A stretch of DNA of 63,277 bases, counting the filler, from Folioceros fuciformis (lineage: Eukaryota), in NCBI GenBank assembly GCA_049999805.1. It is 10 parts of 10 records of this genome, joined end to end, with 100 filler letters (N's around TTAATTAATTAA, not from the genome) between each part and the next. Parts side by side here need not be neighbours in the genome. Positions count along the whole stretch, not along the records: positions 22,084 to 26,664 come from JBNGIO010000968.1; 9 more parts are not named here. One strand, given 5' to 3'. A program made the translations under genes and the position numbers. Shown here in pieces: positions 5,895 to 56,439 of the stretch; position 1 is the stretch's first letter, and each line of letters opens with the position of its first letter. Under the pieces are notes generated by a model. It was given only the letters and a program-made list of their open reading frames with translations. It was not told where the DNA came from and searched no databases.

Positions 5895-5994
5895 NNNNNN
5901 NNNNNNNNNNNNNNNNNNNNNNNNNNNNNNNNNNNNNNTTAATTAATTAANNNNNNNNNNNNNNNNNNNNNNNNNNNNNNNNNNNNNNNNNNNN
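5895..5994. other. Artificial contig linker (N run, TTAATTAATTAA, N run). Same linker at 11453-11552, 21984-22083, 26665-26764, 32033-32132, 39220-39319, 53434-53533, 55652-55751, 61588-61687
   Basis: Identical 100-nt blocks whose core gives stop codons in all six frames. Confidence 0.98.
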
Positions 5995-11452: not shown

Positions 11453-11552
11453 NNNNNNNNNNNNNNNNNNNNNNNNNNNNNNNNNNNNNNNNNNNNTTAA
11501 TTAATTAANNNNNNNNNNNNNNNNNNNNNNNNNNNNNNNNNNNNNNNNNNNN

Positions 11553-21983: not shown

Positions 21984-22083
21984 NNNNNNNNNNNNNNNNN
22001 NNNNNNNNNNNNNNNNNNNNNNNNNNNTTAATTAATTAANNNNNNNNNNNNNNNNNNNNNNNNNNNNNNNNNNNNNNNNNNNN

Positions 22084-25000
22084 GCTCCATCTTCTATAGC
22101 CTTGTTAATCCATGAGTCTATCCTTTTTGCTTCCGATTTAGAAAATGATGAACCAATAATTACACTTTTTTCAGTAGAGTTACCCTAGAAACAATAAATG
22201 AGAAACTGTCATTCTTAAACCTATTTCAAAATGCTTGAATATTTGACTCATCAAGGTTAAAGTACTACCACATGAAGCTTGGCAGCCAATTTGATTAATG
22301 TATTTTTCAATGCAAGAAAGTGATCCTAGTTATGAACATGTCTATATTTAGAAGTTAGATAAATTAACAAATATGTTCCAACCTCATAGTTAGTTAATAG
22401 CTAATTAATAGCCTTCAAGCTTTTTTGTCTTAGACTCTTAAATATAAGGCATGGTGTATTGGTGCCCTGAAAGGTAAAAAGGTAAAAGCAGTGGCATACC
22501 ACATGGATATAGGCATGCTTCACATTTTTGCAATGTTCTCCAGATTGGTCAAATGCACCTTGTACAATTTTTTTGGCCACGATTTCTATACTAGGAATCA
22601 AATCCTACAAAATAATATAGATCTTAGATTTTAATAAAATATAGAGAATGGTTATCCAAGGTTTTATTGCTTACCTCCACAACACATATTGCATGTACAC
22701 TAAGGTCAAGAACCACCTTCTTCTTCCCAGCTTTTGATTTCAGCTCCCACCCTATCTACAAGATCATTTACACCATATAAGTGATTCTCACACTATCAAA
22801 CTTGTAGCTCTTGAGATATGTATAGTGTTGACCCATGTGGCATGGGTACATTATAAGTTTTATTCTAAGTTCTCTGTGTATTCTCAAGCTTGTTGTGAAT
22901 GGGACGTTTAATAGTGGCATTAGAATAGGAGCTTGCCACTTATAATGGAACCATCATTCCCAGCCCTCGGATTAGTAGTAAATTGAGTGTACTTTTTGGC
23001 TGATGCTTTGGTAGCTAACTCTACCTAAACACATATAAGAGGGAAGGGTGAATTCAAACCTTAGAACATCCACTGAAATATAGGAGTTGAATTCTCTTGT
23101 CTGCTATGAGGATATCTTCTTCAACTTGTGCACATGGTAGAATGGAGAATGCTCCATCTGGCAAGTTACAATGTGAAAGAATCTCACCTAATAGCAAAGC
23201 TCCAACTGGTGTTCGACTAGAATAGCAAAAGGAAAGATTTGTGAGGAACACCATGGTGTTGAACCACATACACACCATGGATTTGAAGAGGCATCATACA
23301 TGAGACATAATTTAATCCAAGCTACCTTGCTGGTTTAAGTATAAATGGACATCCAACAGCCAAAGCTGCTCCGATTTTACGTGAAGTCTATTGAATGAGT
23401 GATAGTTTTGTTACAAAGGAGCAAAATGACCATCTACTAATGAAGATATACAAACTTTTGGTGGAGAACTGTTCTACTTGAAATAGTTCCTCACTAACCT
23501 CATATAGAGAGGTGTTGAATGAATTGATGATGCAAATGAGACCAATAGGAAACCTCCGAACCTGCTCTGTGAAGTATGCATGCTGAGGTTGCAAGATTGC
23601 AAACAATTTTGCATTTATGAAAACCCTCCATGTTAGAGTATTGCTTTCATACCACAAACTGAGATGCTTTTGATTGCTTTGAAAGATCCACCGGTGGAGA
23701 GTTCCCATATCTGCAGTGGTCAATGAGACACCATAAAGGTCTCTAATGGTGGTTTAGAAAGAAGCCTAATGACACATGGTCTAGAGACTGTTCTATTCAA
23801 AGTTGTCCAAAACCTACAGGGATGTGCAGTCATATGCTGCGGTAGTGAGCGCGTCAATCACTTGCTTTACTTCATTCTGGGAGTCTCTGGAAGTTCAACA
23901 AAGAGCACCCCAACATTACAGGCCTTAAAAAAGTATCCATGTCATTGAACATTGTATTTTATGACTTGCTCTTAGCTCTCATGCTGCATTCAAAGAGCAT
24001 TGAAATCTTAACCAGTTGAACTCAAACCCACCTAATTGGTTTGCCAGTTTCCATGGAAATCACACTTGCAAACTTCTCTGAACATTGTTTCACCTCCCTC
24101 ACCACTTTCTCCAAACTTGCTTTTCTTTCATAGCTAGGCATGGTTGCCATAATAGGTAGAGCTCTTTCTGCTGTAGAGATTGCAGTGTCAATGTCATAAG
24201 CTTTTGCAAGTGGACATCGAGCTTCCACTTTATCATTGCCCTTATTCGTCACATGTAGATTCAAATTCGGAAGTGTAGGCTTGTTTGCAATGTATAGAGG
24301 ATAGCTAGGCACGTCACTTCCCACAATCTTTTTCTCCTCAACATGCTCACATGAGGAGGCCACTTTACACTCTTTTGTTGTGCCTGCCGTTTGTTGCCCA
24401 TCATGTCTTGAAAGGCTTGGGGTGAATATTTTTTCTGTAGTAACTGCAACAGCAACTGCAATGTGTGCCTCATCTACATGTTTAGGATCAGCAACTGTAG
24501 CTGGCACACCTGCTGCTTGGGATAGAGCCCACGATATTCGCTGTGACAAAAGGCACAATGCACGTCATACAACAAATCGCCTATTCCTCCAATTTCTAGT
24601 TCACCCAATCTGTGAACTCTACACGTTCAACTCACTGGTTTTTTGGTCTTTCCCTTTTGTTTCATAATCCCAGGAAGCTCATGGTCCAATACTTGATTAG
24701 CTGAGGTGTAATCAATTGGTACCTAATCACATTGGTTAAAAAGGACATTTGCTTCATGCAATATGATTTTTGATACATATGTGCATCTTCCTTAAGACCA
24801 AGGTTAGATATCTTACTTCGATCAACTTGATTCCTGGAGGAGAACTAAAGACACACTGCGTAAGAAGACCTTTGAATTCGTGAGCACTTTGGACACAAAA
24901 ACCTTTGCCCCCGTAACTGCAGAATGAGAAAAGCTGGTCCAATAATGAACAAACTAAAAGTCAATTTTTTATTTTAATAAAATGACATTAAAAACACAAG

Positions 25001-26640
25001 CTCCATTGTGTGTTTACACAAAACATCATAGTAGGCACGACATGTACTAGTATGCATGACAATGTTTACCTTTTGGCATATTCAACAAAATTTGGATTGC
25101 CCAAATCTAATCCAAATCTGAAAAACAATTACGAACATGAATAAGAAACTATGCAGTAACAAATAGGGAGACTAAGTATTTCAACAATTGAACATGAATA
25201 AAATCCTACGTTTTGAATTGTGCAGCATTTTGCTTCCATTTGATCATTCCATATGCATAATCATTCAATATGACAACAGTTATGTTAAGTCCCAATCGAA
25301 CTGCGGTTTCCATTTCCTTCATATCCATAGCACGAGTAATTAAAAATCTAAACCGGATGTAAAAACAACAAGTTGCAATAGTTGAATACGACAGAATTGT
25401 ACAATTTTCTCACTCACCTGTGAATTTATTAGAAACCCACCATCGCCACAAACAGCCACGACAATTTTACTTGGATGCAATAGAGCTGCTGCAATCGCCG
25501 ACGGTAATCCTGCTCCCATAGCTGCGAGAGCATTATCCAATAGTAGTGTATTGGGTTCAAATGTCTAAAAGGCACAACGTAATTTCCCATTAATATGACT
25601 TACATTTCTTAATTCCAATGACTCTAAAAATGGTAGTTAGAAGAAAATACTCTATAGTTTAAACTAGTTTACCTTGTAACAACGAGCAAACCATATCTTG
25701 TATAGTCCTACCATAAGAAGGCTTAAATCATGTAAGATATATTTCCTTCTATTTCATAAAGCATGATAATGCCATAAATGAACAGCGAAGTTATGCCTTT
25801 CATATTAAAGTTGACGATAACATCATTTTATGGAAGCTTACCATTATCGAGGCAAACAATAGCATCATTTGGCAATGCTTCCCTGTGATCCAATAAAAAA
25901 AAGAAAAAAATTGATATTTTCTTTTAGTAAAAAAAAAAGTCATGACCTAAGTCCACACAGAGCATTAAGAAGCACTCATACTTTTGCAGTTAAAGAGTTA
26001 AGCTAAACCTTATGTCATAAACAATACGTTGAGGACTCATCGGAAAGCTAGGATCATTAACGCTTTTGGCAAGATGCATCTCACATTCATGCTTAATCTG
26101 ATAGAAATTAAGTGTTTAGTTTTACAAACTTCAAATCGAGATAATGCATTTCTACAAATGCCTAGAATACAACAAACCTGTAACATGAATGCATAGTTCC
26201 AGTGGGTTTGTTTATGCATTTGTTCTTTAAGTCGCCAAACAGCATTTGCAATATCTCCTATGACCTCTAACTGCAATCATAATATTTGTCAATGTTCTTT
26301 TAGTAATCAAGATGAAATAAAGTAGTGGGAAAATATAAAGCAGTAATGTGCAACTCCATCATTGCATGATCTTAATGTTTCACTAAACTAACACAAATAA
26401 GGTTGTTATTCTTCCCATTTTTCACCTGAGGAAAATATATGTTGTCCACCTTTGCACTGTAAAAGTTGAAGTGAATCACAAATGGTGTTTTTCCATGCCT
26501 GCAAGAATCACCTAGGTCTACATAACTTGTATGTGTTTATGGGTCCAAGATTTAAGAAACACAACAATAGACAAGATCTTACTGCATGAAAAAGGGTGGT
26601 TTTTCTACAACATCATGTCCCATGTTGATGATAACGTCTG
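22084..26640 (-). CDS. Fusion gene: ThDP-dependent acetolactate-synthase-like / putative 2-oxoglutarate decarboxylase domain, then a linker, then an ALDH21-like aldehyde dehydrogenase domain; about 20 exons, both ends cut by gaps
   Basis: ThDP part: ADVIINMGHDVVEKPPFFM, YFPQLEVIGDIANAVW, FPMSPQRIV, LDNGLYKIWFARCY, EPNTLLLDNALAAMGAGLPSAIAA, GDGGFLINSQEMETAVRL...LNDYAYGMIKWKQ, GNPNFVEYAKSYG, VPIDY. A phase-0 intron at 24635-24541 joins it to YPLYIANKP...YERKASLEKVV...METGKPIR|DSQNEV...RRFPIG...GCPFILKPAS|RTPVGAL...IGWELKSKAGKKKVV...QSGEHC. Confidence 0.85.
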
Positions 26641-27369
26641 CTTTTTCAATACAAATATGAACATNNNNNNNNNNNNNNNNNNNNNNNNNNNNNNNNNNNN
26701 NNNNNNNNTTAATTAATTAANNNNNNNNNNNNNNNNNNNNNNNNNNNNNNNNNNNNNNNNNNNNCACTTCTGGTTTTTGTGTGCAAGAGCTTCCGCTCTT
26801 TTTCTTAACAGCAACATGCCAGAGGAATGCAATAGTTGCCTACAATGGAGGAGAATGAAAATGTTGAAGAGGGAGCGGAAGAAACAGGCAATAGCCAACG
26901 TCAGCGGCGCACGTTTGCTACAATGCCTACTGGTTTTCAGCAAAAAGAGTGGCAACTAGCAGCGTTGTCAAATGAAGGAGTTAGCATGGAGCAGCGATAC
27001 CAGAATTCAATAGCTGTTTTTGCTAGACGACAAATGAATGCACCTTAAATCAACATGTCTAATCTAGGGATGACCGTAGAGCAAGCACAATAGTGGTTGA
27101 CAGGGTGGCAAGGACGCAGTGCACATATTGTGGTGAAAGAAGATGAGTCTGGAGGGTTAGAAGGAAAGCCAACTAGGAGTCTAGCAACTAGAAGAATAGC
27201 AAATGTAAATGTGGCATTGGTGGATAATCGTGCAAGGCATGTTGAGATAGAAGGGTCTGCACTAGCAAAAGTACTTGTGAATACAAGTGCACAACTTGGT
27301 AATGGTGCCACACTTTGCCACTTCACACCAATTGCCCACCTCGTACACACCAAAACTCTACCACTGAAT

Positions 27370-27940
27370 GCAGAAGACGGGTGGCAAGGGCATTGCCAGC
27401 AATGTAGCACATCCTTACACCCAAGCTGTCCACATGCTTGCATATGTATCTGCCACACACAAAACCAGGGAAGTTGGCAACTCTCAAACCTCAACAGATC
27501 TACCCCTCTATGAGAATCAGGTGTAGAAGTTGGCCAGTCTCAATCCTAAACACATCTAAATCTAAATGAGAATTAGGTGCAGAAGTTGGCAAGCCAACCC
27601 CCTAAACACATCTACACCTCTATGAGCCCTAATAGTAAGACCCAAAATGCCTCTACAGTTGTCATCCTCCTGCAACTTACGCTAACCATACCAAAAACTC
27701 AGCCCTGCCCCGCAAGCAACAGGCAACAGTCGGAGCTTGTCACCAGTTATTTTGACACTGCCAGCAACTTCACTACTCCACGCCAAATGGCCACCATAAG
27801 TTATACACACTAACATCCTACCATTGCACGCAGAAGATGGGTGGCAAGGGCACTACTAGCCACGTAGCACATCTCTACACTCGAGTTGTCCACATGCTCT
27901 TACATGTATTTGCTACATACAAAACTAGGGAAGTTGGCAA
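27370..27940. repeat. Diverged ~110-bp direct repeat (27370-27480 and 27830-27940) in a probably TE-derived region
   Basis: gcagaagacgggtggcaagggca...cagggaagttggcaa versus gcagaagatgggtggcaagggca...tagggaagttggcaa. Confidence 0.7.
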
Positions 27941-29336
27941 GCCTTCAACGTAGTGACATCCGTTCGAGCCTCAAACACAGTGACACACATAATCGAATGA
28001 AGGCAGTTGCAATGGCAAGCGTGATTAGCAGCATCACTCAGCTACTCCACTCGCGACAAGATCCAGGTTCCATTAGACAAACGTGCGACCGGGTTTCACT
28101 CCTCAACTACGATCAGCCCACGGCTGATTTGGCACACCCTACTTCCATTTCCCAACACGCTTTGGATCCATCCATGCTTGCCACAGCCTTGTCCTAGCAC
28201 ACTCTACATCCAAGCATGCTTGCCACACCTACATGTCCTACCCAACAGCTAGAGTGTCAACAAAGATTGTCATCTGTTCAAGTTTCCTCCCACGCAGCAC
28301 ATATGCCTTTCCATGCGCCCAATAGACACTCATAGAAAGAAATCATCTGTCGTTTCATCAGTTACTTAACAAAAAGGCCATGCTTTGATGGACATATCAC
28401 TTGAACGTTACTTTATTTACTTTACTGTATTGTACCCATTTTTTGATTAATTTAATTTAAGGGGATTATTACCTACCTATCGGCTATAAAATATTTTGTC
28501 TTGTTTAAGTCATAAAAAAATATTTAAATTTTCTTAAAACTAGAAAGGACAAAATAAATGTGTTTCATCTATTTCCCACTAAAGTGAGCACCAAAGCATG
28601 CTTATACCCATAAGCAGCACATCATGGCTGACGAAGATTTGCAGGAAGGGTTTATTATGTGCACCATGCCATGTACGAATAAAGAGGTTGACTACCAAGT
28701 GAAGAATCACAAGATGCTTGACATGACCCAAAACCTATGGAATAGGGCATACTCACTAATGGAGGAGTGACATGTTGTACCTTCTAAAGGTTTGTAGCAA
28801 GGGTTATTTATATCTTCATGCACGAAGTGAAGGAAGCTCACTCGTGTGAGATTCCTTCACTAAACCTTATGTATGCTTTAGTTTTGGAACTAGAGTTAAC
28901 TACTAGGTTAAGCATGTGCCAAGAATCTTCTATCTATGCCTACTTGATTATATTTATTTTGTGCAAAATACTTTTAACCAAATATTAAGCTTCAAAGACT
29001 CTATATACTTCTAGCCACATATAAACCTTAACACCAAGCAAGGAAATGCTGTTATGGTTTTCAAGTGGCTAAAGTTTTACTATATCTAACTATGAATAGA
29101 TGACTAGTATAGAAATATTGTCTTGACCTTAGTTTACTTGATGATACTTTCCTGGGTATTTTGATGCACAGTGGATTATTATGTTCGGATTCTTTTGGCA
29201 TTTATATTTCTTTGTATTATAGGATAAATGGATTCAAAATAAAATATAATGATGACCTCTATTGAAGTGTAGTGCTTATGAAAGGCCAAAGTTTTTTTTG
29301 TGACATCACTTTTGGTGTCGATCAAGTTATCATAAC

Positions 29337-31950
29337 ATGGCAACTAGGCTTAGGTGATTTTCATAATGTTCAGCTATAATATTTGAACTTAGTAAGATAG
29401 ATTGGCTTGTTTTTAAATCTTAAGTTGCCAAATCTTAAGTGCAGAGACATGATCCAATCCATTCGTGCCTGCAAAACCGCTTCTGAAGAGAGAGCTTGTG
29501 TGGCTAAGGAATGTGCATTGCTCAGAACTGCTTTCAAATCAAGCGATGATGAATACAAACATACAAATTTAGCCAAGCTAATGTTCATACATATGCTAGG
29601 TTATCCTACTCATTTTGGGCAGATGGAATGTGTGAAGTTGATTGCAACTACTAGCTTTCCACAAAAACGAATAGGATATCTTGGTTTGATGGTGCTTCTC
29701 GATGAGAGACAAGAAGTATTAATGCTTGTCACAAATTCTGTCAAGAAGTATCCTTCCCTAACATTGAGATCTTCTCAAGATACATCAACCTCCATATGAA
29801 ATAATCCCTTAACTAAACAACCAGCGACTTGCAACACTCAAATCAGTACATTGTTGGACTAGCATTGTGTGCACTTGGTAATATATGTACGGCAGAGATG
29901 GCTCGTGATTTAGCTCCAGAAGTAGAAAAGCTATTCCGCCATTCCTACTCATATGTTAAAAAAAAAGTAAGATCATGTGCCCTCTACTTTCTCCATTTGT
30001 TCAGCATTTTCTACCAGAGAAGTTTATTGTTGTAACTAGGTCTCCACTTATGGCACAACTTTCTTGCTATAATTTGGGCATTACTTGGGTTGCAGGCTGC
30101 CATATGTTCAATTCGAATTATTCGAAAAGTACCCGACCTTCATGAATATTTTATAACTCCAGTTGTATCTTTGTTGGCAGACAAACACCATGGAGTCCTT
30201 ATTTCTGGTGTTCGGCTAATGATCGAACTATGCCAATCAAACTCTCAAGCCTTGGATCACTTCAGGAAGGTATTTACAAGACTACTTTTAGAATTGCAAC
30301 TGATGTGATTACTCGACACTAGTTCATTACACTTCTTTTACCACTAATGTGTGACATTTTTCACTCCTTATTTTGTACTTTATTGTGTCTTTCCACTATT
30401 CATGAAGGGCGCAAAGTAGGTCCAACATCTTATATTTGGAAGAAATTTAGATGGAAGTGAGAATGCTATTGCAAGCACATATATTGAGGTATTGTTATGC
30501 CTTCCAGCAAACTTCTACTGTCGTTCGCATCCTCAAGAATTTGGTGATAAGTGGATATGCTCCAGAGTACGATGTAGGTGGTATTACGGATCCATTCTTA
30601 CAAGTTAGGATTTTGAGATTGCTTCGTCTTTTAGGAAAAGGAGATCCCGATTCAAGTGATGACATGAGTGACATTTTAGCTCAGGTACATACACCAGTGG
30701 AAAAAACTTTCTATCTAGATAGTATATGCAAAGCCATGTTATCGTAGTAACATCTCCTTTCCATTCTCACAAACAGGTCGCCACCAATACAGACTCTAGT
30801 AAAAATGCCGGCAATGCAATACTTTATGAATGTGTGCAAACAATCATGGGCATAGAAGCTATTGCTGGTTTAAGAGTACTTGCTATTAATATAATGGGAA
30901 AATTTCTATCAAGTCAGGATAACAATATAAGGTAAGCTACACCACCACATTGCCATAAACTCTCTTTTTTGTCACAATATTTATATGCAGTTACTTTCTT
31001 ACAACAGATTTGTAGCACTAAAGACTCTTATAGCAGTAGTAGCTGTGGATACCCAAGCAGTCCAACGACATCGAGCTATAATCATTGAATGTGTTAAGGT
31101 AGTCCGATCTTTGTTACAATTCGACTTTATGAAATTTTGCTTTGCAAATCTTAGCATAAGCAACCCATTACCGGTGCTCATGCAGGACTCTGATATTTCT
31201 ATTAGAAAAAGAGCATTAGAATTGGTGTACTCTCTAGTTAACAAGAGCAATATCATGATACTCACAGAAGAGCTTTTAAACTATCTTGAAGTTAGTGATG
31301 CAGAGTTCAAAGTTGATTTAACTAGCAAGATTTCTTCACTCATTCAAAAGTACTTCATCTACTTTAAACTAGAAATTTCATATTTTTAATGAAGAATTTC
31401 TCTACATTTTATTATGTATGAACTATAGGAACATTGAAGATAATAATCTCTTTGTTTATGTTGCAGATTTGCTCCATCGAAACTATGGCATGTAGATCAC
31501 ATGATAAAATTATTAATTCAGGTAGGGAGGTAGTGAACTCATTATCGGATAGTTAGGTTTTCTATTTAGATATCTTATGAATGAATGTCTTTCCAGGCTG
31601 GTAAGTACTTAGGCGACGAAGTTGTTAGATCATTACTTGTCTTAATAAGTAATGCACCTGATCTTCAAGGATATACAGTTCGAACCTTCTATTGCGCATT
31701 ACAACATTGGGATGGGCAGGTGCTCCATATCCACCACATTCATTTTATTTTACAATTTTATAAAATTAAATTAAATTAAGCATTGGTCTTTCTTGTAAAG
31801 AATAAGGATCTTGTTGTGTATATTTTATTTACTTACATTATTTATCTTGATTAGGAAACTCTTGCAAATGTAGCATTGTGGTGCATTGGAGAAAATGGTG
31901 AAATGCTTATTGATCAATCCAACAAGTTACCAGAGGAAGACCCAATTACA
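29337..31950 (+). CDS. AP1G: AP-1 complex gamma adaptin, N-terminal trunk, 3' end cut by gap
   Basis: [111 protein letters not shown]. Confidence 0.94.
29748..29824 (+). other. U12-type (minor spliceosome) GT-AG intron in AP1G
   Basis: 5' splice site GTATCCTT, branch-site-like TCCCTTAAC at 29805-29813 just before the CAG acceptor, and no polypyrimidine tract. Splicing restores [15 protein letters not shown]. Confidence 0.8.
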
Positions 31951-32132
31951 GTTACTCAATTCTATTATTAAATTTTAAAAAAAAAAAGTAATTTCTTGCT
32001 AAGTAGAGTGTCTAGAGTAGTAAAGATTGATGNNNNNNNNNNNNNNNNNNNNNNNNNNNNNNNNNNNNNNNNNNNNTTAATTAATTAANNNNNNNNNNNN
32101 NNNNNNNNNNNNNNNNNNNNNNNNNNNNNNNN

Positions 32133-33766
32133 TTCTGGGCAAGTCCCTCAAACACGACCTGGGCATCCTCTATACTGCCACATTTAGCATACATGCTCAC
32201 AAGGCTGTTCGCTACAAAAGTATCATTTTGAAGGTCTTGTTGTCCGATGTGCGCATGAAGCTCCTTCCCCATATCAAGAGCAGAGGTGCCCAGACTTGAA
32301 CATGCCTGCAGGAGGCACACGTATGTTACAGAGTTGGGTCTAACCATGCCTTCTTCGTGCATGGCCTTGTACAGATGAAATGCTTCCTGCCCCATGCCTC
32401 GCTGGGAATAACCAGCTATTATTGCATTCCACGTCACCACATTTCTTTTATCAAGTCCCGCAAATACTCCCCTGGCATCCTCCAGGCTGCCACACTTTGC
32501 ATACATGTTCACCAAACTGCTGGCCACAAATACATCAGCTTGAAGTCGTCGTTCTCTAATTTCTGCATGAAGCTGCCTCCCCTGCTCCAAAGCAGGGATG
32601 CCTACACTTGCGCATGCCTGCAGAACAGACACAAACGTCGCAGAATCAAGTGCCACGATGCCCTGCTCCTGCATGGCCCTGAGCAGACCAAGTGCTTCTT
32701 TCCCCATACCCTGCTGAGAATATCCTGCTATCATGGCACTCCACGTCACCAAATCCTTCTGGGGGAGCCCGTCAAATACTCTCAGAGCATCCCCCAAGCT
32801 CCCACACTTCGAATACATGTCCACCAGGCCACTAGAAACAAATAAATCAGGCTCGACTCCGCTGGCCAGCACATCAGCATGCACCTTCTGCCCTGATTTC
32901 AAGTCTACTCCCTTCGCGCAAGCCTGAAGGGCTGCCACAAACACGTGGCCGTTGGGCTTCACGAGTGAACTCCGCAATCGATGATACAGATGTATGGCCT
33001 GCTGATACTGTCCATGCGTAACATAAGTTGAGATCATAGCAGACCATGTGAAAGCGTCTGGTTCCTTGACCATATCGAAAACATTCACAGCTTCTTGCAA
33101 CCTGCCATGAGAAGCGTACATCCGAAGAATGTGATTGCACAGGAACGTATCCCACTCAAGCCCCCTCTTCTCGCTGAGAGCATGCACACGGCGCCCCAGA
33201 TGCAGATCCTTCCTGGCCACACACTCCCTAAGAACCACATAAAGGAGAGACTGAGTAATACAACACTCTGCCTGCACCAGTCCTCCGAGACCCTCAACAG
33301 CCTCCGCAATCTGCCCCTGCGAACATAACCTCCTAACAGTTTCAGCCATCAAAGGCCTGCCAAGTTTACAATAATCCGGCACACTCCAGCTGGACCACGG
33401 CCCCCCATGCAAATCCAGAGCAGCCAGCTGCGCATCCACCCAAGCTGGCTTTGAGACCTTGTCCACCCACAGGACCTCCTGAGACTCTTTGTGCCGGAAG
33501 TCAGGCGACCGGGAGCTCCTCTTATCATGCCTGTTATCCCACCAAAGCGAGGGATCCAGGAAAAATCGCTGCCACAAGAGCTCCTGGCGACTATCCTGGC
33601 TGGTCCAATCGTCTCCAGCCATATCTCCTCTTGGGAGGGCTCCCACTAGTGTGCAGGTGCTGCATCTCGCAGCTTCCTTGCGTTCTAACAGCCGATTATT
33701 GAAACCCAGGTGGGCGGGAGCTCTCCGTAGAATCCCAGTTGACCTCCAGCCACCCATGTCTGGCAA
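32133..33766 (-). CDS. PLS-class PPR protein with N-terminal OSB-type PDF motif; C-terminus cut by gap
   Basis: PLS repeats (VTWSAMIAGY, LVDMYSKCGSL) are preceded by LWQRFFLDPSLWWDNRHDKRSSRSPDFRHKESQEVLWVDKVSKPAWV. Confidence 0.9.
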
Positions 33767-34310
33767 GAGCAGGCCTGGAAACTACGCATCGAAAAGGAGG
33801 CTCTGACCGGCACCTCGTCATCAGGATCTGTGGGTGGCGACCGACCACAGCTTCAGAAGCAGACTTGCCTGCTGGTGTGGAGCACTTCATAACAATTCGT
33901 CACCTCCCAGAGAAAACCAGTTTCTTGCAGGTACATACACGTCTCTTGTATCCGTACATAGACTCAGTCCTGGTAGACTGGCATCCTCAAGTGGGGTCTT
34001 TTTTGCACCCGACAATGGAGATGCATGGTGCTTCCAAGTTTTGTGGAGAGCAGAGAGCGAAATCCTTCGTTCATACTGTATGTTGTTGGCAATTCTTCAA
34101 AATTTTACACAGTGTCTCCATCGTCCGATATTGTAACGAGATGGATGCATCATTGTAAGTCGTTGCGTTCACCAATGCTGCGATTGATTGCGGTCGAAAT
34201 TATGGTTTCCGTGCTGAACACAATTCAGCCCTTGTGTGGACAGATGCAACCTGAAGACGCTGCAAATGTTCTGCGTGACGAAAAGAGGCTGGAATTGGGT
34301 TGTGTAAGAT

Positions 34311-36758
34311 ATGCACTGCTTACTGGGACCGAGCTTGTGGCTAGACAGGTTATCCAAGCCTGTTTCCGTGGACGCGGAGCTGGCTGCTGGAGATGTACAG
34401 ATGAAGCGCTGTGGCGCTACATCGAGATGGGATGAATGTGAGCCTACAAGATACGAAAGGAGAGTGTCGGGTGAAATGGTGAGGAAGCTGTGTGAGCTGG
34501 GGCAGGTTGCTGAGGCCGTGGAGGGGCTGGGAGTTCTGGTGCACGGTGACGCTCTTATTCCCCAATCTCTTTTCTACACTGTGCTGAAGGAATGTGTGGC
34601 TAGAAAGGATTTGTCTCTTAGTCGTCGTGTTCATGCTCTCATGGTGAAGGAGGGGTCTGAAGAAGACACGTTCCTGTGCAACCACATCTTGCGAATGTAT
34701 GCTGCTCATGGCAGGTTGCAAGAAGCGATGGATGTGTTTAGGAGAGTCTCCAGGCCAGATGCCTTCACGTGGTCTGCCATAATCTCTGCAAATGTTAAGC
34801 AGGGAGAGGATAAAGAGGCCATTGAGCTGTATCACCGTATGCGGGGGTCGAGTGTAAAGCCTGATGGGCATGTTTTTGTAGCAGCCCTTCAGGCTTGTGC
34901 CATGGCAGCAGACTTCAAGTCTGGGCAGGAGGTACATGCCGATGTGTTGGCCAGAGGCGTTGAGTGCGATTCGTTTGTTTGCAGTGGCCTGGTTGACATG
35001 TATGCCAAGTGCGGCAGCTTGGAAGATGCCCAAAGAGTATTTGATGGGCTTCCTCAGAAAGATGTTGTGACATGGAATGCTATGATAGCAGGATACTCCC
35101 GGCAGGCACGGGGTCAGGAAGCCTTATCTCTTTACAGTGCAATGCAAGAAGAAGGCATGGCTGCACCCAATTCTGTGACATACGTGTGCGCTTTGCACGC
35201 ATGCGCCAGTGTGGGTAGCCTGGCTCTGGAGAAGGGGAAGCATCTTCATGCACAGATTCGAGAGCGAGGTCTTCAGGCTGATGTTGTTGTGGGTGGGAGC
35301 CTTGTGAACATGTATGCAAAGTGCGGCAGCTTGAAGGATGCTAGGGACGTGTTTGATGGCCTTGCTCACAAGAGTGTGGTGACGTGGAATGCTATCATAG
35401 CAGGCTACTCCCAGCAGATCATGGGTCTGGAAGCTCTGGGGCTTTACAGGGTTATGCAAGAGGACGATGTTGCCGAACCTGATGCTGTGACATTTGCATC
35501 CCTCCTGCAGGCATGTGCAAACGTCGGCACCCCAGCATTGGACATGGGGAAGCAGCTTCATGCACAGATTCGGAAACAAGGCCTGCTGGCTGATGTGATT
35601 GTAGCGAATAGCATGGTGAACATGTATGCAAAATGCGGTAGCCTGGAGGATGCTCAAGCTCTATTCGACGAACTTAGTGAAAAGACGGTGGTGACATGGA
35701 GTGCTATGATAGCAGGATATTCCCTGCAGGGCATGGGGCACGACGCCCTTCGTCTGTACAAGGATATGCAAAACGAGGGCCTCGTTGCACCAAATTCCGT
35801 CACATTTCTGTGCCTCCTTCAGGCATGTGCAAGTGTCGCAGCTTTGCACCTGGGTAGGCAGCTTCACGGACAGATAAAAGAACAAGGGCTTCAAGCCGAT
35901 CTGCTTGTGGCTGCGAGCTTGATAAATATGTATGGCAAGTGCAGTAGCTTGCTGGACGCACAGCAGGTGTTTGATTCACTGGCTGAAAGAGACGTAGCTA
36001 CCTGGAATGCACTGATTGCAGGGTACACCCGCCAAGGAGCCAGCGCAAAGGTTTTCAACTTGGTTCGCAGGATGCGCAAGGATGACATACGGCCAGACAG
36101 CATCACTTTCGTCAACGTGCTAACAGTATGCAGTCATACAGGTCTAGTGAGGAAGGGGCGGGAGTACTTCGACGCCATGAGCAGAGACTATGGCATCACT
36201 CCCACGGCAGACCACTACACATGCATGGTGGGCCTCCTGGGCCGTGCAGGACACCTGCAGGAGGCGCTGGCGTTCCTGAATACGATGCCTGTGTCACCTG
36301 ATGCAGGGGTTTGGCACACTCTGTTGGGGGCTTGTCAAAAGTGGAACGACGTGGAGGTAGGACGAAATGCATTCGACAATGCACTGAGGCTGAATCCGAA
36401 AGATGCTGCAGCCTATGTGCTGATGTCTAACATCTACACCAGTGCCCAGATGTGGGAGCAGGCAGAGGAGATGCAGGTGCGGAGAAAAGAGAACAGGGCA
36501 TGGAAGGAGCCGGGCCAGAGCTGGTGGACAGACATGGATGGACTGGTGCACAGCTTTCTGGTTGGGTATGTGAAGGATCACGAGTGTGAAGCAAGGCTGG
36601 AACGAGAGCTTTCACCCAGAGATGGTGACGCTGACGATGGCGATGGTGGCGAAAACCCTTGGTTTGGGCGCAACGCCAAGCCGGCCATCGCATGTGATGA
36701 AAACCGATTACCTTTTAGAAAATTCGACTCTCGGTGGCGCTGGGCTCACTTAACCTAA
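34311..36758 (+). CDS. PLS-class PPR protein with E domains and a WW-type PG-box, with degenerate DYW remnant
   Basis: The 815-aa ORF has PLS repeats, HYTCMVGLLGRAG, AAAYVLMSNIY and WKEPGQSWWTDMDGLVHSFLVG. It has no HxE or CxxC deaminase motif. Confidence 0.9.
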   Translation: MHCLLGPSLWLDRLSKPVSVDAELAAGDVQMKRCGATSRWDECEPTRYERRVSGEMVRKLCELGQVAEAVEGLGVLVHGDALIPQSLFYTVLKECVARKDLSLSRRVHALMVKEGSEEDTFLCNHILRMYAAHGRLQEAMDVFRRVSRPDAFTWSAIISANVKQGEDKEAIELYHRMRGSSVKPDGHVFVAALQACAMAADFKSGQEVHADVLARGVECDSFVCSGLVDMYAKCGSLEDAQRVFDGLPQKDVVTWNAMIAGYSRQARGQEALSLYSAMQEEGMAAPNSVTYVCALHACASVGSLALEKGKHLHAQIRERGLQADVVVGGSLVNMYAKCGSLKDARDVFDGLAHKSVVTWNAIIAGYSQQIMGLEALGLYRVMQEDDVAEPDAVTFASLLQACANVGTPALDMGKQLHAQIRKQGLLADVIVANSMVNMYAKCGSLEDAQALFDELSEKTVVTWSAMIAGYSLQGMGHDALRLYKDMQNEGLVAPNSVTFLCLLQACASVAALHLGRQLHGQIKEQGLQADLLVAASLINMYGKCSSLLDAQQVFDSLAERDVATWNALIAGYTRQGASAKVFNLVRRMRKDDIRPDSITFVNVLTVCSHTGLVRKGREYFDAMSRDYGITPTADHYTCMVGLLGRAGHLQEALAFLNTMPVSPDAGVWHTLLGACQKWNDVEVGRNAFDNALRLNPKDAAAYVLMSNIYTSAQMWEQAEEMQVRRKENRAWKEPGQSWWTDMDGLVHSFLVGYVKDHECEARLERELSPRDGDADDGDGGENPWFGRNAKPAIACDENRLPFRKFDSRWRWAHLT

Positions 36759-37600: not shown

Positions 37601-40059
37601 CATGAAAGTGCAGGAGATATAGTAGGCGGCTGAGGCTGTACAAGAGATCATGAAAGTGCAGGAGATACGGCCTCTTCAACATGCAGGATAATAGGATAGT
37701 GTACAAGAGAACATAAGACTGCATGAAGTACGAATTCTTCAACAACGATTGAAGAATAGCGTACATGAGAACATCCACTGCAGCATATATGGCTTCTTCA
37801 AGACGAATGTAAGGGTAGTACACTGGGCGGGCCTTTCACATCATAGACCACAATTTAAAGTTATACGGGCATTCCATGGGCGGGACGATTGGTAGTTTTA
37901 CAGTGCTCATTGTAGTGGTAGATAGATTCGTGGGTCGTTTTCTCGTCTTTTCAAGGTAGATAGATGTCCCATGCTCAGTCTTCCAAAAGTCTCCTTGTTA
38001 CATATCTCCAATGTTTCATTGGTACTATGCCATTAAGCATCCCTACAAGGAGGAGGTGCTCTACATTCAGTGTTGCGTTAAGGACTACTACGGCGCTATC
38101 TCTATTACGCATCCTCGAATCAATCCTTTCTAGGATTGGGTGCTATGGATTTCGTAGCAGGACTAGGACTAGGTGCTCTACTCTGCATCTTTGTCGTAAA
38201 AGGGTGGTACAAAGGTCTATCCTTGCTATAAGAATTACAGCGGCATGTCAGAGGTTGTCCTTGCCATAAAAATTGCTACAGGGCCGTCCCTCCCCGTCCC
38301 TGCCATGAAGAATGCTATGGAGCTGCCTGTTGCACATTGTCTTGAAAGACTACCTGGAATAGAGAGAAACACAACATCTCAATGAAGAACATTATGTGGA
38401 ATACAAGACAGCTTGTTAGCACACATCTCAAAACTCCCAAGGACTTGAAGAAGTTTGTGGTGGAAGGATGCGGAAAGGCATACAACCCACATCTGCTTAA
38501 GGATCCGAATCTCTTTTAAAATACTAAACTTTTAATTAAACAGGAAGAAAGTACATATAGAGGAAGCGAATCGGGACCTGAAGCCCCTTCAATTACGTAC
38601 TTACTGATTCCAGACTACGTGGGTAAGGAACGGGCAGAGAGAGATATGTAAGTATGTAATGTATTTGATACCGGATAAGTTGGACAGTGATTCGTAATAA
38701 AGTAAGGCGGCGGGAAAGTTAACGAGGTGACCGTACGGAGCTCTAGATCGTCGCAGCCGCGGCAAAACCCTAAAAGGAAAGGCAAAAACCCCGTTTACGG
38801 GAGCTTCATTCGCATGTCGTGCCTGCCTCTGGGCTCTAAAGCTTTACTGCCTTTGTCTCTCACCTTTGCCTGGTCTGGGCATGGCTTGACGTGAGGCACA
38901 TACTCACCTGACCTGTCCGCTTGTCCCGTGTCGCCACCGGCGGCTTCTGCCTTTCCCGCGCGTGTGCCTCTCTGCTGCTGGTGCTGCAGCTACGCCTGCT
39001 CACCCCACGGTAATTGCCTTCTTGCGGCCTCGGCATCCGAGCCCCGGAGATCGGCCAGGTTGACGGCGTCGGATCCCCGGAGCCTCTCCCCCTGCTCCTG
39101 CCCCTGCTCCCTGCCTGCGGGAGCTGGAGCGGCCGTCCTTGTCTTGGAGGCGGATGCTCGCAGGCTGGCGGCCAGGGTTTGTGCGGGATGGCTGGCCCCA
39201 GATCCGGCCTCTGTGGATGNNNNNNNNNNNNNNNNNNNNNNNNNNNNNNNNNNNNNNNNNNNNTTAATTAATTAANNNNNNNNNNNNNNNNNNNNNNNNN
39301 NNNNNNNNNNNNNNNNNNNTCATAAATGAGGAGGAACAACCTAAGAAGGGCAAAGGCCAAAATGGTCTAGCCCCCTCCAGTTTCATTCTGAAAACTATCT
39401 ATTGCTTTTGTGATGCAAAATGACCCTAGACCAACTTACAATTGCTGCCCACGAAGCAATCTAACCTATACATGCCATTGTTCTAAACATAGTATTTGCC
39501 AACACCTTTTGAAAAGAGATGGATACGCATTGCTCTTACTAACGCAACTGCTTCCTACTCCCGCCATCAAAATCCCATAGACCCCATTCTTCCTTGTGAA
39601 AGGCCGGCAACCTAAAAATAACCTCTCAGCCATGCGTCAATTGTATTATGTAATAATAACTTATGAAGAAAAAAATAACTCCATAGCAACAACTAAGATT
39701 AGGAATTTACAAATCCAAAGCAAAGTAACCTCAGTTTGAAATTCAAAATAAAATATTATGTAGGGAAGAGGTGATACCTCACTATATGCAAACCGTAAGT
39801 TTTGTTTATAGTTATGTGAAGCATGTTTCAAAGTGTTTTTTATAGTTATGTGAAGCATGTTTCAAAGTGTTCGACAACTTGACTGCTCTTTCATAGTCAC
39901 AACATTTGACTTTATCATTCTATCAAAGCACAACAGATCTGTAACAAATGTGTAAACATTCCATTTTCTAGCACAAGAAATGTAAATTGATTGATTTAAA
40001 AAGTTGATTAAAAAAGACATCCACACACATTGCCAGAGCTGAAGTAGTGTGTAGCTTGA

Positions 40060-44657: not shown

Positions 44658-47600
44658 TCAATGGCGGTCGCCGCAGGAGCAGAATCCGTCAACGAAATGG
44701 TGCACCCGGTGGGCATCCCGGACGATGATTTCTCGCTTCTCGATACGCGACATGGCTTTTGTCCCGCGGTGACAGTCGTCACACATGCGCAGATTCTTGG
44801 TGACCAGGAGAGTAGCGCCATCCGGGGTGTGGAGAAGGCCGTAGGCCAGGGCCAGCTTCTCCGCGTGTCCGCATAGAGCATCTTCCCGTGGGGGTGCAGA
44901 CCCGGATTCCACGTCTCCTTCCTGCATCTGGGCATTCACGCTCCGGAGCTTGGACGAGATGTGGTCCTTGTCGTCGCCCACCACGAACGTGTGGGTGCTG
45001 GAGTCGATCTCGATCCAGGCCTTGGCCGGCTTCTTGCAAGCGCCTGCGGCCACTCTGAGAGCTTCCACCTGCTCGGCTTCCTCCCTCATGCCCGCAGAAG
45101 AGTACATGCCCGCCAGGAGCACATACGCGACTGCGTTCTGCGGCTCCTGCTGGATCAGATGGTCGAAGCAGCGACTGGCTCGGGCGATGTCGTTGTGGGC
45201 TCTGCACGAACTGAGCAGAGACCGCCAGCCCACCACGTCGTTCTGATATGGCGACGCCCGGAGCAGCATGCTCTCCGCCTCCTCCAGGTGGCCGGCCCGC
45301 CCCAGCAGATCCACCATGCACGACAAGTGATGGGCGCCGGGCTCGATGCCGTGCTGCTCTGACATGGCGGTGAAATACTCCCGGCCTTGCTCTACCAGGC
45401 CGTCGTGGCAGCAGGCTGAGAGCAGGCAGATGAATGTGTTGCCGTCGGGCTTCACTCTCTGCTGCTGCATTTCGCGGAAGCACTGCACGGCCATGTGGCT
45501 GTCGTTGTGCTGGGCGTAGCCGTTGAGGAGGGCTGTCCATGACACCACGTCTCTCGTGGGGAGGAGGTCAAACAGCTTGTGGGCGTCGTCTAGCCTCCCG
45601 CACTTTGCATACATGTCCACCAGGCTGTTGCCCACAGCCACATCCGATTCCAGCCCCCGTTCCTGGATCTGCTTGTGGAGCTGCCTGCCCTGGTGCAACG
45701 CCCCGACAGCGGCACATGCTTTGAGAAGGCAGACGAACGTGACGTGGTTGGCTGGAGTGACGTCTTCCTGTTGCATGCTGGCGTACAGGCCCAGGGCTTC
45801 CTGCCCGAACCCGTGTTCGACGTAGCCCTGAACCATCGCGGTCCATGTTACCACGTCCTTTCTGGCGAGGCCGTCGAAGACCCTGCGTGCATCCTCCAGA
45901 CTGCCGCATTTTGCATACATGTCCACCAGACAGTTGCCCACAACCACATCGCTGTGCAGTCTCCTTTCCCGAATGTGGGAGTGCAGCTGCTTGCCCTCCC
46001 GTAAAGCCTTCGCACTAGCACACGCTTTCAGCAGGCACAGGAACGTGACTCGGTCTGCCAGTGTGGTGCCTTCCTCCTGCATTGCCCAGTACAGAGTGAG
46101 GGCTTCCTGGCTGAGGCCCTGCTGAGCATAGGCTCCGATCATTATGGTCCAGGACACCACGTTCTTCGTCTGCATACTGTCAAATACTTTGCGAGCATCC
46201 TCCAGGCTCCCACACCTTGCATACATGTCGATCAAGCTGCTACCAATGACCACATCGGTATCCAGTCCCCTTTCTTGAATCTCACGGTGGACAGCCTGGC
46301 CCTGGAGAAGAGCAGCCACACTGGCGCACGCTTTCACGAGGCACACGAATGTGACATGGTTAGCTGGCGTGATGCCCTCCTGTCGCATGCCTGCATAGAG
46401 AGTAAGAGCTTCTTGACCAAGCCCATGCTGGACATACGCTGAGAGCATAGTGGTCCAGGTCACCACATTCTTCGTCCCCAGACTGTCAAAGACTTTGCGT
46501 GCATCACTTAAGCTGCCGCACTTTGCATACATGTCCACCACACAGTTCCCGATGAATATGTCAGGCACACATGCGCTCTCCATAACATCCGCATGGACTC
46601 GCTTGCCGGATTCCAAGTCTGCTGCACAAGCACATGCTTTGAGAGCTGCCACAAAAATATAGCTGTTCGGCTTCACACCCGAGTCTTGCATGTGTTGATA
46701 AAGTTCCAGAGCCTTGGCAGGCTGTCCGCATTCGACATGTGCTGAGATGATGGAGAGCCAAATGAAGGCATCTGGAGAAGCCTGCTTGTGGAAGACCTGC
46801 AACGCTTCCTGCAAATTTCCCTCAGAAGCATACATGCGAATGATGTGATTGGCCAGGAATTTGCTCAACTCGCAGCCACATTTCCGAATGAGAACATGCA
46901 CACGCCTGCCGACAACCCCATCTTTCTGGGCCGTGCACTTCTTGAGGATTGGATAGAAGAGAGATACGGGGACATAATATCCCCTCTGCACCATGAGGTC
47001 CAAGGCTGTAAAAGTCTCACCAAGATGTCCCTCTTCACATAATCGGTACTGCCCTTCCAGCACCACACGCCCTTCATCATGTGCCCTGCAAAATCGGAAT
47101 ATCAGAACAAGATAGCAGAGTGCAGCACCCGAATGGTGCAAACCAAGATGGTCGACAGAAGCACGCACCTTCCAATCTCCTCTTGGACAGTATCACGGTG
47201 GAAACCGTGTTGGTAAGGTCCCCGAAATCCATCCACGCTCTCAACTGCTCGTGGCTTTCCATTACATTGTAAGTCAGACCACAAGGATTCTGTCCTTGAG
47301 CTGTGCCTGGATCCGGGGGATGCCTGCCGTGTTTTGAGATCAGTTTCGTCGCCAAAAACACACCATGGGGCATTCAAAGCAAACGTACAACCAGGGACCA
47401 GTCACCCACGCAAAGGATGACTACCTTGTTCTCCTTGTCGTTCCACAATTGCAATCGACCCGTCAAAAACTTGTCCAACAACGCCTCCCGCAGAGTTACC
47501 CCCACTGGAAGCCAACTATCACCATAAGAACCTCAAGCTTCATACCACTTACCCCCAATAGGAACGAACTGTTGAAGCCATGAAGGCGGTGCGGGAACTC

Positions 47601-53433: not shown

Positions 53434-53533
53434 NNNNNNNNNNNNNNNNNNNNNNNNNNNNNNNNNNNNNNNNNNNNTTAATTAATTAANNNNNNNNNNN
53501 NNNNNNNNNNNNNNNNNNNNNNNNNNNNNNNNN

Positions 53534-55600: not shown

Positions 55601-56439
55601 ATTTCCTCGTAAGTAGACGAACGCAGAGCAGGCAGCTAGCAGGACAACGACNNNNNNNNNNNNNNNNNNNNNNNNNNNNNNNNNNNNNNNNNNNNTTAAT
55701 TAATTAANNNNNNNNNNNNNNNNNNNNNNNNNNNNNNNNNNNNNNNNNNNNGGCATACTTTCATCCCCCTTGCTCTTGAGACTCATGGAGCTATGGGCGA
55801 GGACTTTTCAAGGTTTACCAAGGAGTGCGCCAAGGTTTATCAGAGCAATAGGAATGGTGTTCTCCCTCTTTCCTCTGTGGTGGCCTTCTTTTGACAATGT
55901 GTATCCATTGCTTTGCAACGAGCATTGGCCAATGCAGTTTTTAGAATAGCAACAAGCGCAAGTCAAGCGGCTTCTTCGGCATCGGTGGTAGGTAGGCCTT
56001 TTGTTATTCCACATCATGACATTTTGGGAGCAGTAGCTAGTTTTTGAAATGATATTCGCAGGGGAGAGTTTATCTTTTTGCCTTTGGCCCTAATGGGGTT
56101 CCTCCAATCTTTGGAGTAGATGGGACTTTCCATCTCTTTTTTGATCATAGAAAATACCTTGTTGTACCTCATAAAGAATTTTGATTAAGAGGACTCTTCG
56201 AAGGGCAATAGTATGGCATACCAAACGGAAGAGAGAGGATATGTTAGAATTATTTCTTCACAAAATATAGATGGTCGATTCGGGTTTGGGTATGAACGCT
56301 TAGTTGTTGAAAACAAAAGTCCACTGTCATTCTCCACTTCGCAAGAAAACATGGTTTAGGATTCAAAACTTTGCCGCTATACTCTAATCCAATTTAAGGA
56401 GGCCATGCTGATTGTGTTTAGGATTTGGGGCTAGATAAT

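Follow-up and report, generated by a model that had tools for sequence, protein, structure and literature searches.

A land-plant gene in Folioceros fuciformis that fuses a bacterial-type ThDP enzyme to a strongly diverged ALDH21-type aldehyde dehydrogenase

Background

The described system closest in its logic is the cyanobacterial bypass formed by OgdA/KGD and SsaD (Synechococcus PCC 7002 A2770/A2771, Synechocystis Sll1981, and Microcystis MaKGD), in which an acetolactate-synthase-like thiamine diphosphate (ThDP) decarboxylase is followed by an aldehyde dehydrogenase (ALDH), and coenzyme A (CoA) is not involved. Here we describe a gene of Folioceros fuciformis (assembly GCA_049999805.1, contig JBNGIO010000968.1), in an analysed stretch of 63,277 bases (the window), in which a ThDP enzyme and an ALDH are predicted to form one polypeptide. 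The cyanobacterial bypass, in contrast, consists of two separate proteins, and its ALDH belongs to another subfamily than that of the fusion. We favour, as somewhat better than an even bet, the reading that this is a land-plant fusion gene whose family converts 2-oxoglutarate to succinate, and that the Folioceros copy is a decarboxylase with an attached ALDH domain that is dead or has been repurposed.

For the ALDH half of the fusion family, the closest solved relative is PpALDH21A1 of Physcomitrium patens (PDB 5MZ5/5MZ8), which has Arg121, Tyr296, Arg457, Glu267 and Cys302 in common with the family. PpALDH21A1 is a stand-alone protein, and the ALDH half in the window lacks Arg121, Tyr296 and Glu267. 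According to bioRxiv 10.64898/2026.01.13.699213, PpALDH21 oxidises succinic semialdehyde in the cytosol with NADP as cofactor and has a Km of 181 uM for this substrate, whose carboxylate is bound by Arg121, Arg457 and Tyr296 (citing Kopecna 2017). In that preprint and in PMC7823795, ALDH21 of "lower plants" figures as a succinic semialdehyde dehydrogenase that stands alone, is cytosolic, is induced by stress, and is fed from the gamma-aminobutyrate (GABA) shunt only.

The catabolic acetolactate synthase AlsS (1OZF, 4RJJ, 5D6R) and plant acetohydroxyacid synthase (AHAS; 1YBH) share the ThDP fold and the GDGG...ND motif with the fusion family, but they are much more distant from it than 13bb and have no ALDH partner. 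Bacterial pairs of an NF006187/PRK08322 gene and an ALDH gene (for example in Burkholderia, Corallococcus and Sphingomonadales; ALDHs 5J6B, 5KF0, 5JRY) have the same gene order as the plant fusion. Nevertheless, the bacterial proteins are encoded by separate open reading frames (ORFs) in 76/76 pairs, without introns and without a linker.

Gene structure and the junction between the two halves

The gene fills one entire contig (4,581 bp; GC content 36.8%). Its parts are the following.

22084..26664, minus strand: whole contig, partial fusion gene of 21 exons and 720 codons, cut at both ends
24636..26662, minus strand: ThDP half, end of the middle domain and PP/TPP_enzyme_C domain, exons 1-11
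26662-26583, 26498-26426, 26270-26178, 26097-26009, minus strand: exons 1-4
25882-25842, 25707-25673, 25564-25418, 25316-25210, minus strand: exons 5-8
25117-25070, 24916-24817, 24722-24636, minus strand: exons 9-11
24541..24635, minus strand: junction intron of 95 nt, gtgagt...ttgtcacag, phase 0
24032..24540, minus strand: exon 12 (509 nt), low-conservation linker, then the ALDH N-terminus
22084..23886, minus strand: ALDH half continued, exons 13-21
23886-23818, 23710-23653, 23561-23499, 23387-23326, 23216-23060, minus strand: exons 13-17
22755-22675, 22604-22500, 22325-22269, 22184-22084, minus strand: exons 18-21

The 720 codons form a single frame without a stop, which runs off the contig at both ends. 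In a script test of the splice sites on the minus strand, 20/20 introns were GT..AG, with lengths of 70-304 nt. This is in agreement with the sequence-only reading, which had counted about 20 exons splicing without stops. What that reading regarded as flanking gaps are artificial 100-nt spacers between unrelated contigs. The 1139-aa protein of the liverwort Calypogeia fissa extends beyond the contig by about 266 residues at its N-terminus and by about 135 at its C-terminus, and tblastn with five relatives as queries found no other pieces of the fusion gene in the window.

The last ThDP exon (24722-24636) translates to VPIDYTSANQVLDHELPGIMKQKGKTKKP, with KKP as last residues, and ends in CCA followed by the donor gtgagt. 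Exon 24540-24032 resumes in phase 0 with a linker that opens with RISWALSQAAGVPATV. The linker comprises about 79 aa inside exon 12 and about 90 aa in all, longer than the roughly 65 aa estimated before, and the ALDH N-terminus starts at YPLYIANK (24303-24280). Reading through the donor gives GTG AGT TGA, that is, a stop after two codons and a ThDP-only product if the intron is retained. Donor, 95-nt intron, phase and read-through stop are thus as the sequence-only reading had described them.

Residues 268-1004 of the Calypogeia fusion match the contig collinearly in tblastn, with the junction included; this ordered match across the junction excludes chance. The junction is conserved between both species (...LDHELPGIMK.. 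// ..ALSQAA..PATV), including the linker start RISWALSQAA..PATV. In Pfam, two ThDP exons matched TPP_enzyme_C (E 5e-12 and 1.1e-8) and exon 12 matched Aldedh (E 1e-10). The matches of another two ALDH exons were weak (E 6e-4 and 0.077), and the 29-aa junction exon had none. With the predicted splicing, one open frame leads from TPP_enzyme_C via the linker to Aldedh.

The ThDP half

The ThDP half possesses GHDVVEKPPFFM (GHDVxEKPPF), LYKIWFARCYK, LLDNALAAMGAGLP (LLDNALAxMGAGLP), GMIKWKQ, GDGG and ND, so the GDGG...ND ThDP motif is intact, as had been noted from the sequence. The positions of the main motifs are given below.

25436..25447, minus strand: GDGG of the ThDP-binding motif
25265-25260, minus strand: ND
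25250-25230, minus strand: GMIKWKQ
25699-25697, minus strand: family-specific Lys of LYK

The Calypogeia orthologue (P0001) scores 825.6 bits with NCBIfam NF006187/PRK08322 (cut-off 509), a score that belongs to the orthologue and not to the window protein. This equivalog is named "acetolactate synthase large subunit", and the Calypogeia half was not assigned to AlsS or to biosynthetic acetolactate synthase. Among solved structures, the Calypogeia ThDP half matches 13bb_A ("acetolactate synthase") with E 5.6e-145, catabolic acetolactate synthases with about 1e-84 to 1e-93, and AHAS chains with about 1e-67 to 1e-68; TIGR00118 scores 341 bits, below its cut-off of 538. Protein atlas matches of the ThDP half were generic "acetolactate synthase large subunit" clusters only. 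The NF006187 score and the far weaker AHAS matches bear out the earlier assignment of this domain to the bacterial "acetolactate synthase large subunit" type rather than to plant AHAS.

The fusion family in eukaryotes

A word-index search with exon 12 gave one match among longer proteins, the 1139-aa predicted Calypogeia fissa protein, which carries TPP_enzyme_N, _M and _C plus Aldedh. With the Calypogeia junction region as query, 82/120 of the matches listed carry TPP_enzyme_C and Aldedh. The same architecture is predicted in liverworts (Calypogeia, two species of Riccia, and a partial one in Marchantia), ferns (Ceratopteris KP509_04G012500, Adiantum), chlorophytes (two species of Coccomyxa, Elliptochloris, Ostreobium, Bryopsis), the red alga Rhodosorus, and the labyrinthulid (stramenopile) Hondaea. 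Two further EukProt fusion records, judged by their prefixes, probably belong to the zygnematophyte-type algae Spirogloea and Mesotaenium. The fusions of Psilotum nudum and Pteridium aquilinum are transcriptome ORFs, and others are MMETSP transcripts; judged by these record names, the fused frame is present at the RNA level in relatives. The database names of the fusion records are mostly "hypothetical" or, in UniRef, "NADP-dependent glyceraldehyde-3-phosphate dehydrogenase".

Liverwort, fern and algal fusions have the same domain order, junction and linker start as the window gene. They retain every ALDH catalytic and substrate-binding residue examined, whereas the window copy does not and evolves several-fold faster. 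An exhaustive protein search (1.84 billion representatives) returned 125 matches, the best of them 43-56% identical over short exon-sized fragments, and no close orthologue. Several of the best fragments, from eukaryotic contigs (P0294-P0297), end at a GKPI(K/R) boundary, as exon 12 of the window gene does; this shared end point suggests an intron position conserved across species.

The sequence-only reading knew of no such fusion in land plants. This holds for the literature searched, in which no ThDP-ALDH fusion was described from nature; the search extended to other papers than Kopecna et al. 2017 (Plant J), the primary one on ALDH21. It does not hold for public proteomes of land plants and algae, in which the fusion is already predicted. 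The fusion is thus an old and widespread eukaryotic family, not described in the literature as far as found.

Phylogeny and relatives in mosses

A tree of 52 sequences places the window gene among the streptophytes (support 99 for their clade). Together with the PPR-E-DYW genes on other contigs of the window, this agrees with the earlier view that it is a plant gene. In the ThDP-half tree, the window gene groups with the ThDP-only protein of Sphagnum (96/93). The ALDH trees place the window gene in the fusion clade (100/100 and 96), and in a liverwort plus fern subclade (97/94 and 98).

Four Sphagnum species have ThDP-only annotations of 631-725 aa, in which the linker start (..SRISPAL..) is kept and no ALDH domain is present, and Physcomitrium has a ThDP-only form of 626 aa. 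Mosses also possess stand-alone ALDH21. Moss ALDH21 clusters with a group containing an ALDH of Klebsormidium nitens and falls outside the clade of streptophyte fusions, to which the ALDH half of the window gene belongs. That moss ALDH21 split off recently from the streptophyte fusion was considered and dropped, because moss ALDH21 lies outside that clade, with Klebsormidium. A tree uniting moss ALDH21 with the streptophyte fusion clade, as an older common origin would have it, was not rejected by the approximately unbiased (AU) test (p 0.41).

Stand-alone ALDH21-like proteins that are 64-67% identical to the liverwort ALDH half were also found in Balamuthia and Nuclearia. The history of ALDH21-type proteins in eukaryotes is patchy, and may include transfers or repeated fission.

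Bacterial gene pairs and bacterial fusions

The prokaryote scan, with one genome per species, yielded at least 600 stretches, 599 of them confirmed, and the best 80 loci (L001-L080) were analysed. The ThDP gene is followed by an ALDH gene in 76/80 of these bacterial loci; the remaining 4/80 have no ALDH within the locus, and a fused ORF occurs in 0/80. The partner ALDH is of the ALDH21 type (at least 55% identical to the plant ALDH half) in 27 loci, of a second subfamily, here called type B, in 42, and of other kinds in 7. The proteins of the bacterial pairs are each about 57-64% identical to the plant domains, which is in line with the adjacent bacterial gene pair that the sequence-only reading had supposed. 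The distance from the ThDP stop to the ALDH match has a median of about 50 nt.

Both genes share a reading frame in 49/76 bacterial pairs, against one third expected, and many pairs consist of stop-to-stop frames parted by a stop codon alone. The shared frame may come from shared ancestry, and it would ease fusion via the loss of one stop.

Clustering of 676 ORFs from 62 bacterial loci revealed no conserved neighbours beyond the pair, which is therefore a self-contained two-gene module. Pfam analysis of 10 neighbours at planctomycete and verrucomicrobial loci detected no sdh genes, and the neighbours were unrelated genes apart from locus L065. In this locus of a Pirellulaceae metagenome-assembled genome (L065:4532-10006), a glutamate dehydrogenase gene lies just upstream of the ThDP gene, and the ThDP and ALDH genes are separated by a beta-carbonic anhydrase gene. 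Such an arrangement fits a route from glutamate to 2-oxoglutarate, then to succinic semialdehyde plus CO2, and on to succinate.

Fusions of 1016-1048 aa (P0039-P0090) are present in Candidatus Obscuribacter and Melainabacteria, which are non-photosynthetic Cyanobacteriota. Their ThDP half belongs to the same family as that of the plant fusion (59.9% identity), but their ALDH half, with 36.9% identity to that of plants, is of type B, and the two halves adjoin with almost no linker. Judged from these differences, the bacterial fusion apparently arose independently of the eukaryotic one. That the two enzymes are paired repeatedly, and have been fused at least twice separately, is a strong argument for the ALDH consuming an aldehyde made by the ThDP enzyme.

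Function of the family

Compared to solved structures, the Calypogeia ALDH half matches Physcomitrium ALDH21 best (5mz5, E 1.7e-200), followed by three Burkholderia ALDHs. The ALDH21-like assignment of the sequence-only reading is thus borne out. The ALDH is not of the cyanobacterial SsaD type: the solved cyanobacterial succinic semialdehyde dehydrogenases 3VZ0 and 4IT9 are not among the best 60 structure matches.

The PpALDH21 residues were located, with an offset of 18 for the tagged PDB chain, in an alignment that holds 51 sequences. Besides the window sequence, it comprises 24 eukaryotic fusions, 3 type-B fusions, 2 moss ALDH21 and a further 21 ALDH21-like proteins that stand alone. Among the 50 relatives, Arg121 and Tyr296 are present in 50/50 and Arg457 in 49/50. 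All 50/50 also have Glu267, both glycines of ELGG, Cys302, the oxyanion Asn and the Gln of GQxC. With the residues that bind succinic semialdehyde conserved across the family, its second step is very probably succinic semialdehyde oxidation, which makes 2-oxoglutarate the obvious substrate for the decarboxylase step. That the family decarboxylase uses 2-oxoglutarate is thus what we infer from the residues of its partner ALDH and from the gene pairing.

The ThDP family also possesses two invariant Lys residues (K383 and K468, Obscuribacter numbering), at positions where catabolic acetolactate synthases have other residues. According to PMC10418658 (section 2.5) on Microcystis KGD, docked alpha-ketoglutarate is held by Lys386 and Lys471, and the ThDP contacts include, among others, Gly434-Asp435-Gly436-Gly437, Asp462, Tyr465, Met410, Ala408 and Tyr531. 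The MaKGD sites listed there, the two Lys included, lie at a constant offset of 3 from the family invariants, while Val382, His385 and Leu467 have no match. The family-specific Lys, this agreement in numbering and the Pirellulaceae locus L065 speak indirectly for the 2-oxoglutarate role.

The alternative that survives best concerns the chemistry of the whole family, which might act on another 2-oxoacid or as a carboligase (acetolactate synthase), with another aldehyde oxidised in vivo. The equivalog name of the ThDP family points in this direction, as do the high Km of PpALDH21 for succinic semialdehyde quoted above and the pairing of the ThDP gene, in the best 80 loci, with at least two ALDH subfamilies and seven other ALDHs. 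However, both main types of ALDH partner keep the Arg/Tyr/Arg triad, a carboligase does not need an obligately adjacent or fused ALDH such as that of 76/80 loci, and the two family-specific Lys are absent from catabolic acetolactate synthases. We regard such a different chemistry as doubtful, though the most serious competitor of a 2-oxoglutarate-to-succinate route.

Divergence of the ALDH half in Folioceros

Similarity to 11 streptophyte homologues differs between both halves of the window gene. The ThDP half has a mean identity of 68% to these homologues, which are themselves at 72-80%, and the ALDH half has 49.5%, the homologues being at 74-79%. Among the columns at least 95% conserved across 51 fusion proteins, the window sequence differs at 17/59 in the ALDH half (0-2 in the 11 streptophyte kin) and at 5/74 in the ThDP half (0-1 in the kin). 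The terminal branch of the window gene is 0.29 in the ThDP tree, and 1.34 and 0.99 in the ALDH trees (medians 0.24 and 0.15). The following changed or retained sites were found in the ALDH half, with all the changes noted lying inside exons.

23862..23864, minus strand: Gln at the position of PpALDH21 Arg121 (Arg in 50/50 relatives)
22696..22707, minus strand: DLSV for ELGG, general-base Glu267 to Asp and Gly-Gly to Ser-Val
22530..22550, minus strand: FDQSGEHC for FYQSGQSC, Tyr296 to Asp and GQxC Gln to Glu, nucleophile Cys302 kept
23516-23514, minus strand: oxyanion Asn kept; FNFPLN to FNTSLY

FTGS is also changed, to FSGC. Six of the changes (Arg121, Tyr296, Glu267, the Gly-Gly, the Gln of GQxC and FNFP) are each unique to the window copy among the 51 sequences, while Cys302, the oxyanion Asn and the Lys of KPA are retained. 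Conserved columns of the ALDH half changed at a rate of 29%, compared to 51% in other columns; conserved columns changing less indicate that some constraint persists, although not on catalysis as known. Judged by the residues replaced, the second enzyme of the window copy is probably no longer a succinic semialdehyde dehydrogenase.

Interpretation of the diverged copy

According to the reading favoured at the outset, the window gene is an incomplete nuclear gene from a lineage of bryophyte grade, probably close to mosses. The eukaryotic fusion would have its ancestor in a bacterial module of two genes, in which the ALDH gene comes directly after the ThDP gene. The fused protein would carry a PRK08322-type ThDP 2-oxoacid decarboxylase in its N-terminal part and an ALDH21-type NADP-dependent ALDH in its C-terminal part. 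In family members, this polypeptide would convert 2-oxoglutarate via succinic semialdehyde to succinate, presumably in the cytosol. The cytosol is suggested by the streptophyte fusions, which have only 0-16 residues ahead of the bacterial start and nothing that resembles a transit peptide. In the window copy, the ThDP half is still conserved, while the ALDH half has changed several-fold faster and lost residues of catalysis and of substrate binding, with the frame and the splice sites left intact. In plants that also possess a free ALDH21, the ALDH half of the fusion may become dispensable and decay. The window gene could then be an intermediate toward the ThDP-only genes of Sphagnum and Physcomitrium, in which stand-alone ALDH21 would take the second step.

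A wider proposal, which we put forward tentatively, is that non-seed plants and many algae have a cytosolic, CoA-independent and NADPH-yielding shunt in a single polypeptide. Moss ALDH21 would be its free-standing counterpart, and the moss lineage would be dismantling the fusion, with the window gene as an intermediate whose decarboxylase is conserved and whose ALDH domain is open in frame but dead in catalysis.

Several points weigh against the favoured reading of the window copy and its family. The changes at 5/74 conserved ThDP columns exceed those of the kin and fit a relaxation of the whole gene. The catalytic Glu of the ThDP N-domain, like Arg457 and the C-terminal ALDH motifs, lies beyond the contig end and so outside the comparison. 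A residual or altered ALDH activity is possible, as Cys302 and the oxyanion Asn are kept and Asp sometimes serves as a base. The grouping with Sphagnum rests on 292 columns. No RNA run containing the contig was found among the sequencing runs checked; two DNA runs of one sample, from which the assembly may derive, contain 0.94-0.95 of its words at a depth of 6-10, and read assembly on the contig from four runs gave DNA contigs only, with no exon joints, and nothing from two of the runs. The link to cyanobacterial KGD is made through published residue numbers and not through an alignment. The control genome of Synechococcus elongatus gave no NF006187 match at E<=1e-120, a result that is uninformative, as S. 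elongatus may be without a 2-oxoglutarate bypass enzyme. Only Bacillus subtilis and Methanosarcina acetivorans were above the NF006187 cut-off among the control genomes. Finally, no PRK08322-family or fusion enzyme is known to have been assayed.

Some of these points would also suit a silent and fairly young pseudogene, a decaying paralogue that has so far acquired no stop and no broken splice site. The excess of changes at conserved columns in both halves, the long terminal branch, the lack of an RNA run with the contig among the runs searched, and the complete loss of the ALDH half in mosses agree with it. Nevertheless, there are 0 stops in 720 codons and 20/20 introns are GT..AG, and the lower rate of change at conserved ALDH columns indicates remaining constraint. 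When the ALDH coding part was randomly substituted to a residue change of 20/30/35%, 17/4/3 per 1000 replicates stayed free of stops; this simulation is crude (no indels, uniform rates, the present sequence as start), and a recent pseudogene is compatible with it. We therefore consider a pseudogene unlikely.

The sequence-only reading had proposed that the window gene works as a one-polypeptide bypass, that is, as a fully active bifunctional enzyme channelling 2-oxoglutarate via succinic semialdehyde to succinate. The open frame of 21 exons, the conserved junction, the retained Cys302, oxyanion Asn and KPA Lys, and the family-wide residue pattern that fits succinic semialdehyde would be expected of such an enzyme. 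However, Glu267, the glycines of ELGG, Arg121 and Tyr296 are gone, the Gln of GQxC and FNFP are changed as well, and 17/59 conserved ALDH columns differ, which makes full activity of this copy quite improbable.

Both halves could also be expressed separately, if retention of the 95-nt intron, with read-through into GTGAGTTGA, ended a ThDP-only protein and the ALDH exons were used separately or not at all. The stop two codons into the intron and the ThDP-only proteins of the clade in Sphagnum and Physcomitrium would allow for this. However, donor and acceptor are consensus and in phase 0, the Calypogeia fusion has the same linker start beyond the junction, and the fern and protist fusions are single transcriptome ORFs, so separate expression seems a rather remote prospect. 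An origin of the contig from a contaminating alga, protist or bacterium is hardly credible: it is short and isolated, its GC content is below that of most neighbours in the window, and algae and protists share the fusion, but the gene lies inside the streptophyte fusion clade (99; 96-100), with its ALDH in the liverwort plus fern subclade and its ThDP half beside Sphagnum, it has twenty spliceosomal introns, and contig 26765-32032 has a similar GC content (38.4%).

Other features of the window

The window consists of 10 unrelated contigs artificially joined by nine identical 100-nt spacers, so features are not to be read across the spacer positions. The contigs differ in GC content, with values between 0.37 and 0.52. 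Apart from the fusion gene, they code for PPR proteins without introns that have E and DYW domains, for a MatE transporter and a trihelix/Myb protein, and for fragments of Ty1-copia elements. Of the three long PPR genes, one has an E motif and a DYW deaminase domain, and one has an E motif; these are types of organellar RNA-editing factors. PPR-E-DYW genes on the other contigs indicate that the assembly is that of a land plant with editing. An Rfam scan of the window detected no RNA family.

44658-47192, minus strand; 34308-36758, plus strand; 32133-33781, minus strand: three long intron-less PPR genes
56958-58088, minus strand; 58660-59511, minus strand: retrotransposon fragment on one contig, Ty1-copia RVT_2 and retroviral-polymerase SH3-like domain
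5895-5994, 11453-11552, 21984-22083, 26665-26764, 32033-32132: spacers, each an N run, TTAATTAATTAA and an N run
39220-39319, 53434-53533, 55652-55751, 61588-61687: the remaining spacers

Implications

The architecture is a variant, undescribed as far as found, of a known two-step pathway, and this plant is not the first in which the fusion occurs. Should a fusion of ALDH21 to a 2-oxoglutarate decarboxylase be present in most non-seed plants and algae, succinic semialdehyde could be formed directly from 2-oxoglutarate. The eukaryotic cytosol would then have an NADPH-yielding route around 2-oxoglutarate dehydrogenase and succinyl-CoA synthetase, similar to that of cyanobacteria. Models of carbon/nitrogen balance and of stress metabolism in bryophytes, ferns and algae would then change. 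The Folioceros copy would represent the decay of one domain within an otherwise maintained fusion, and would be useful for understanding how fused enzymes come apart.

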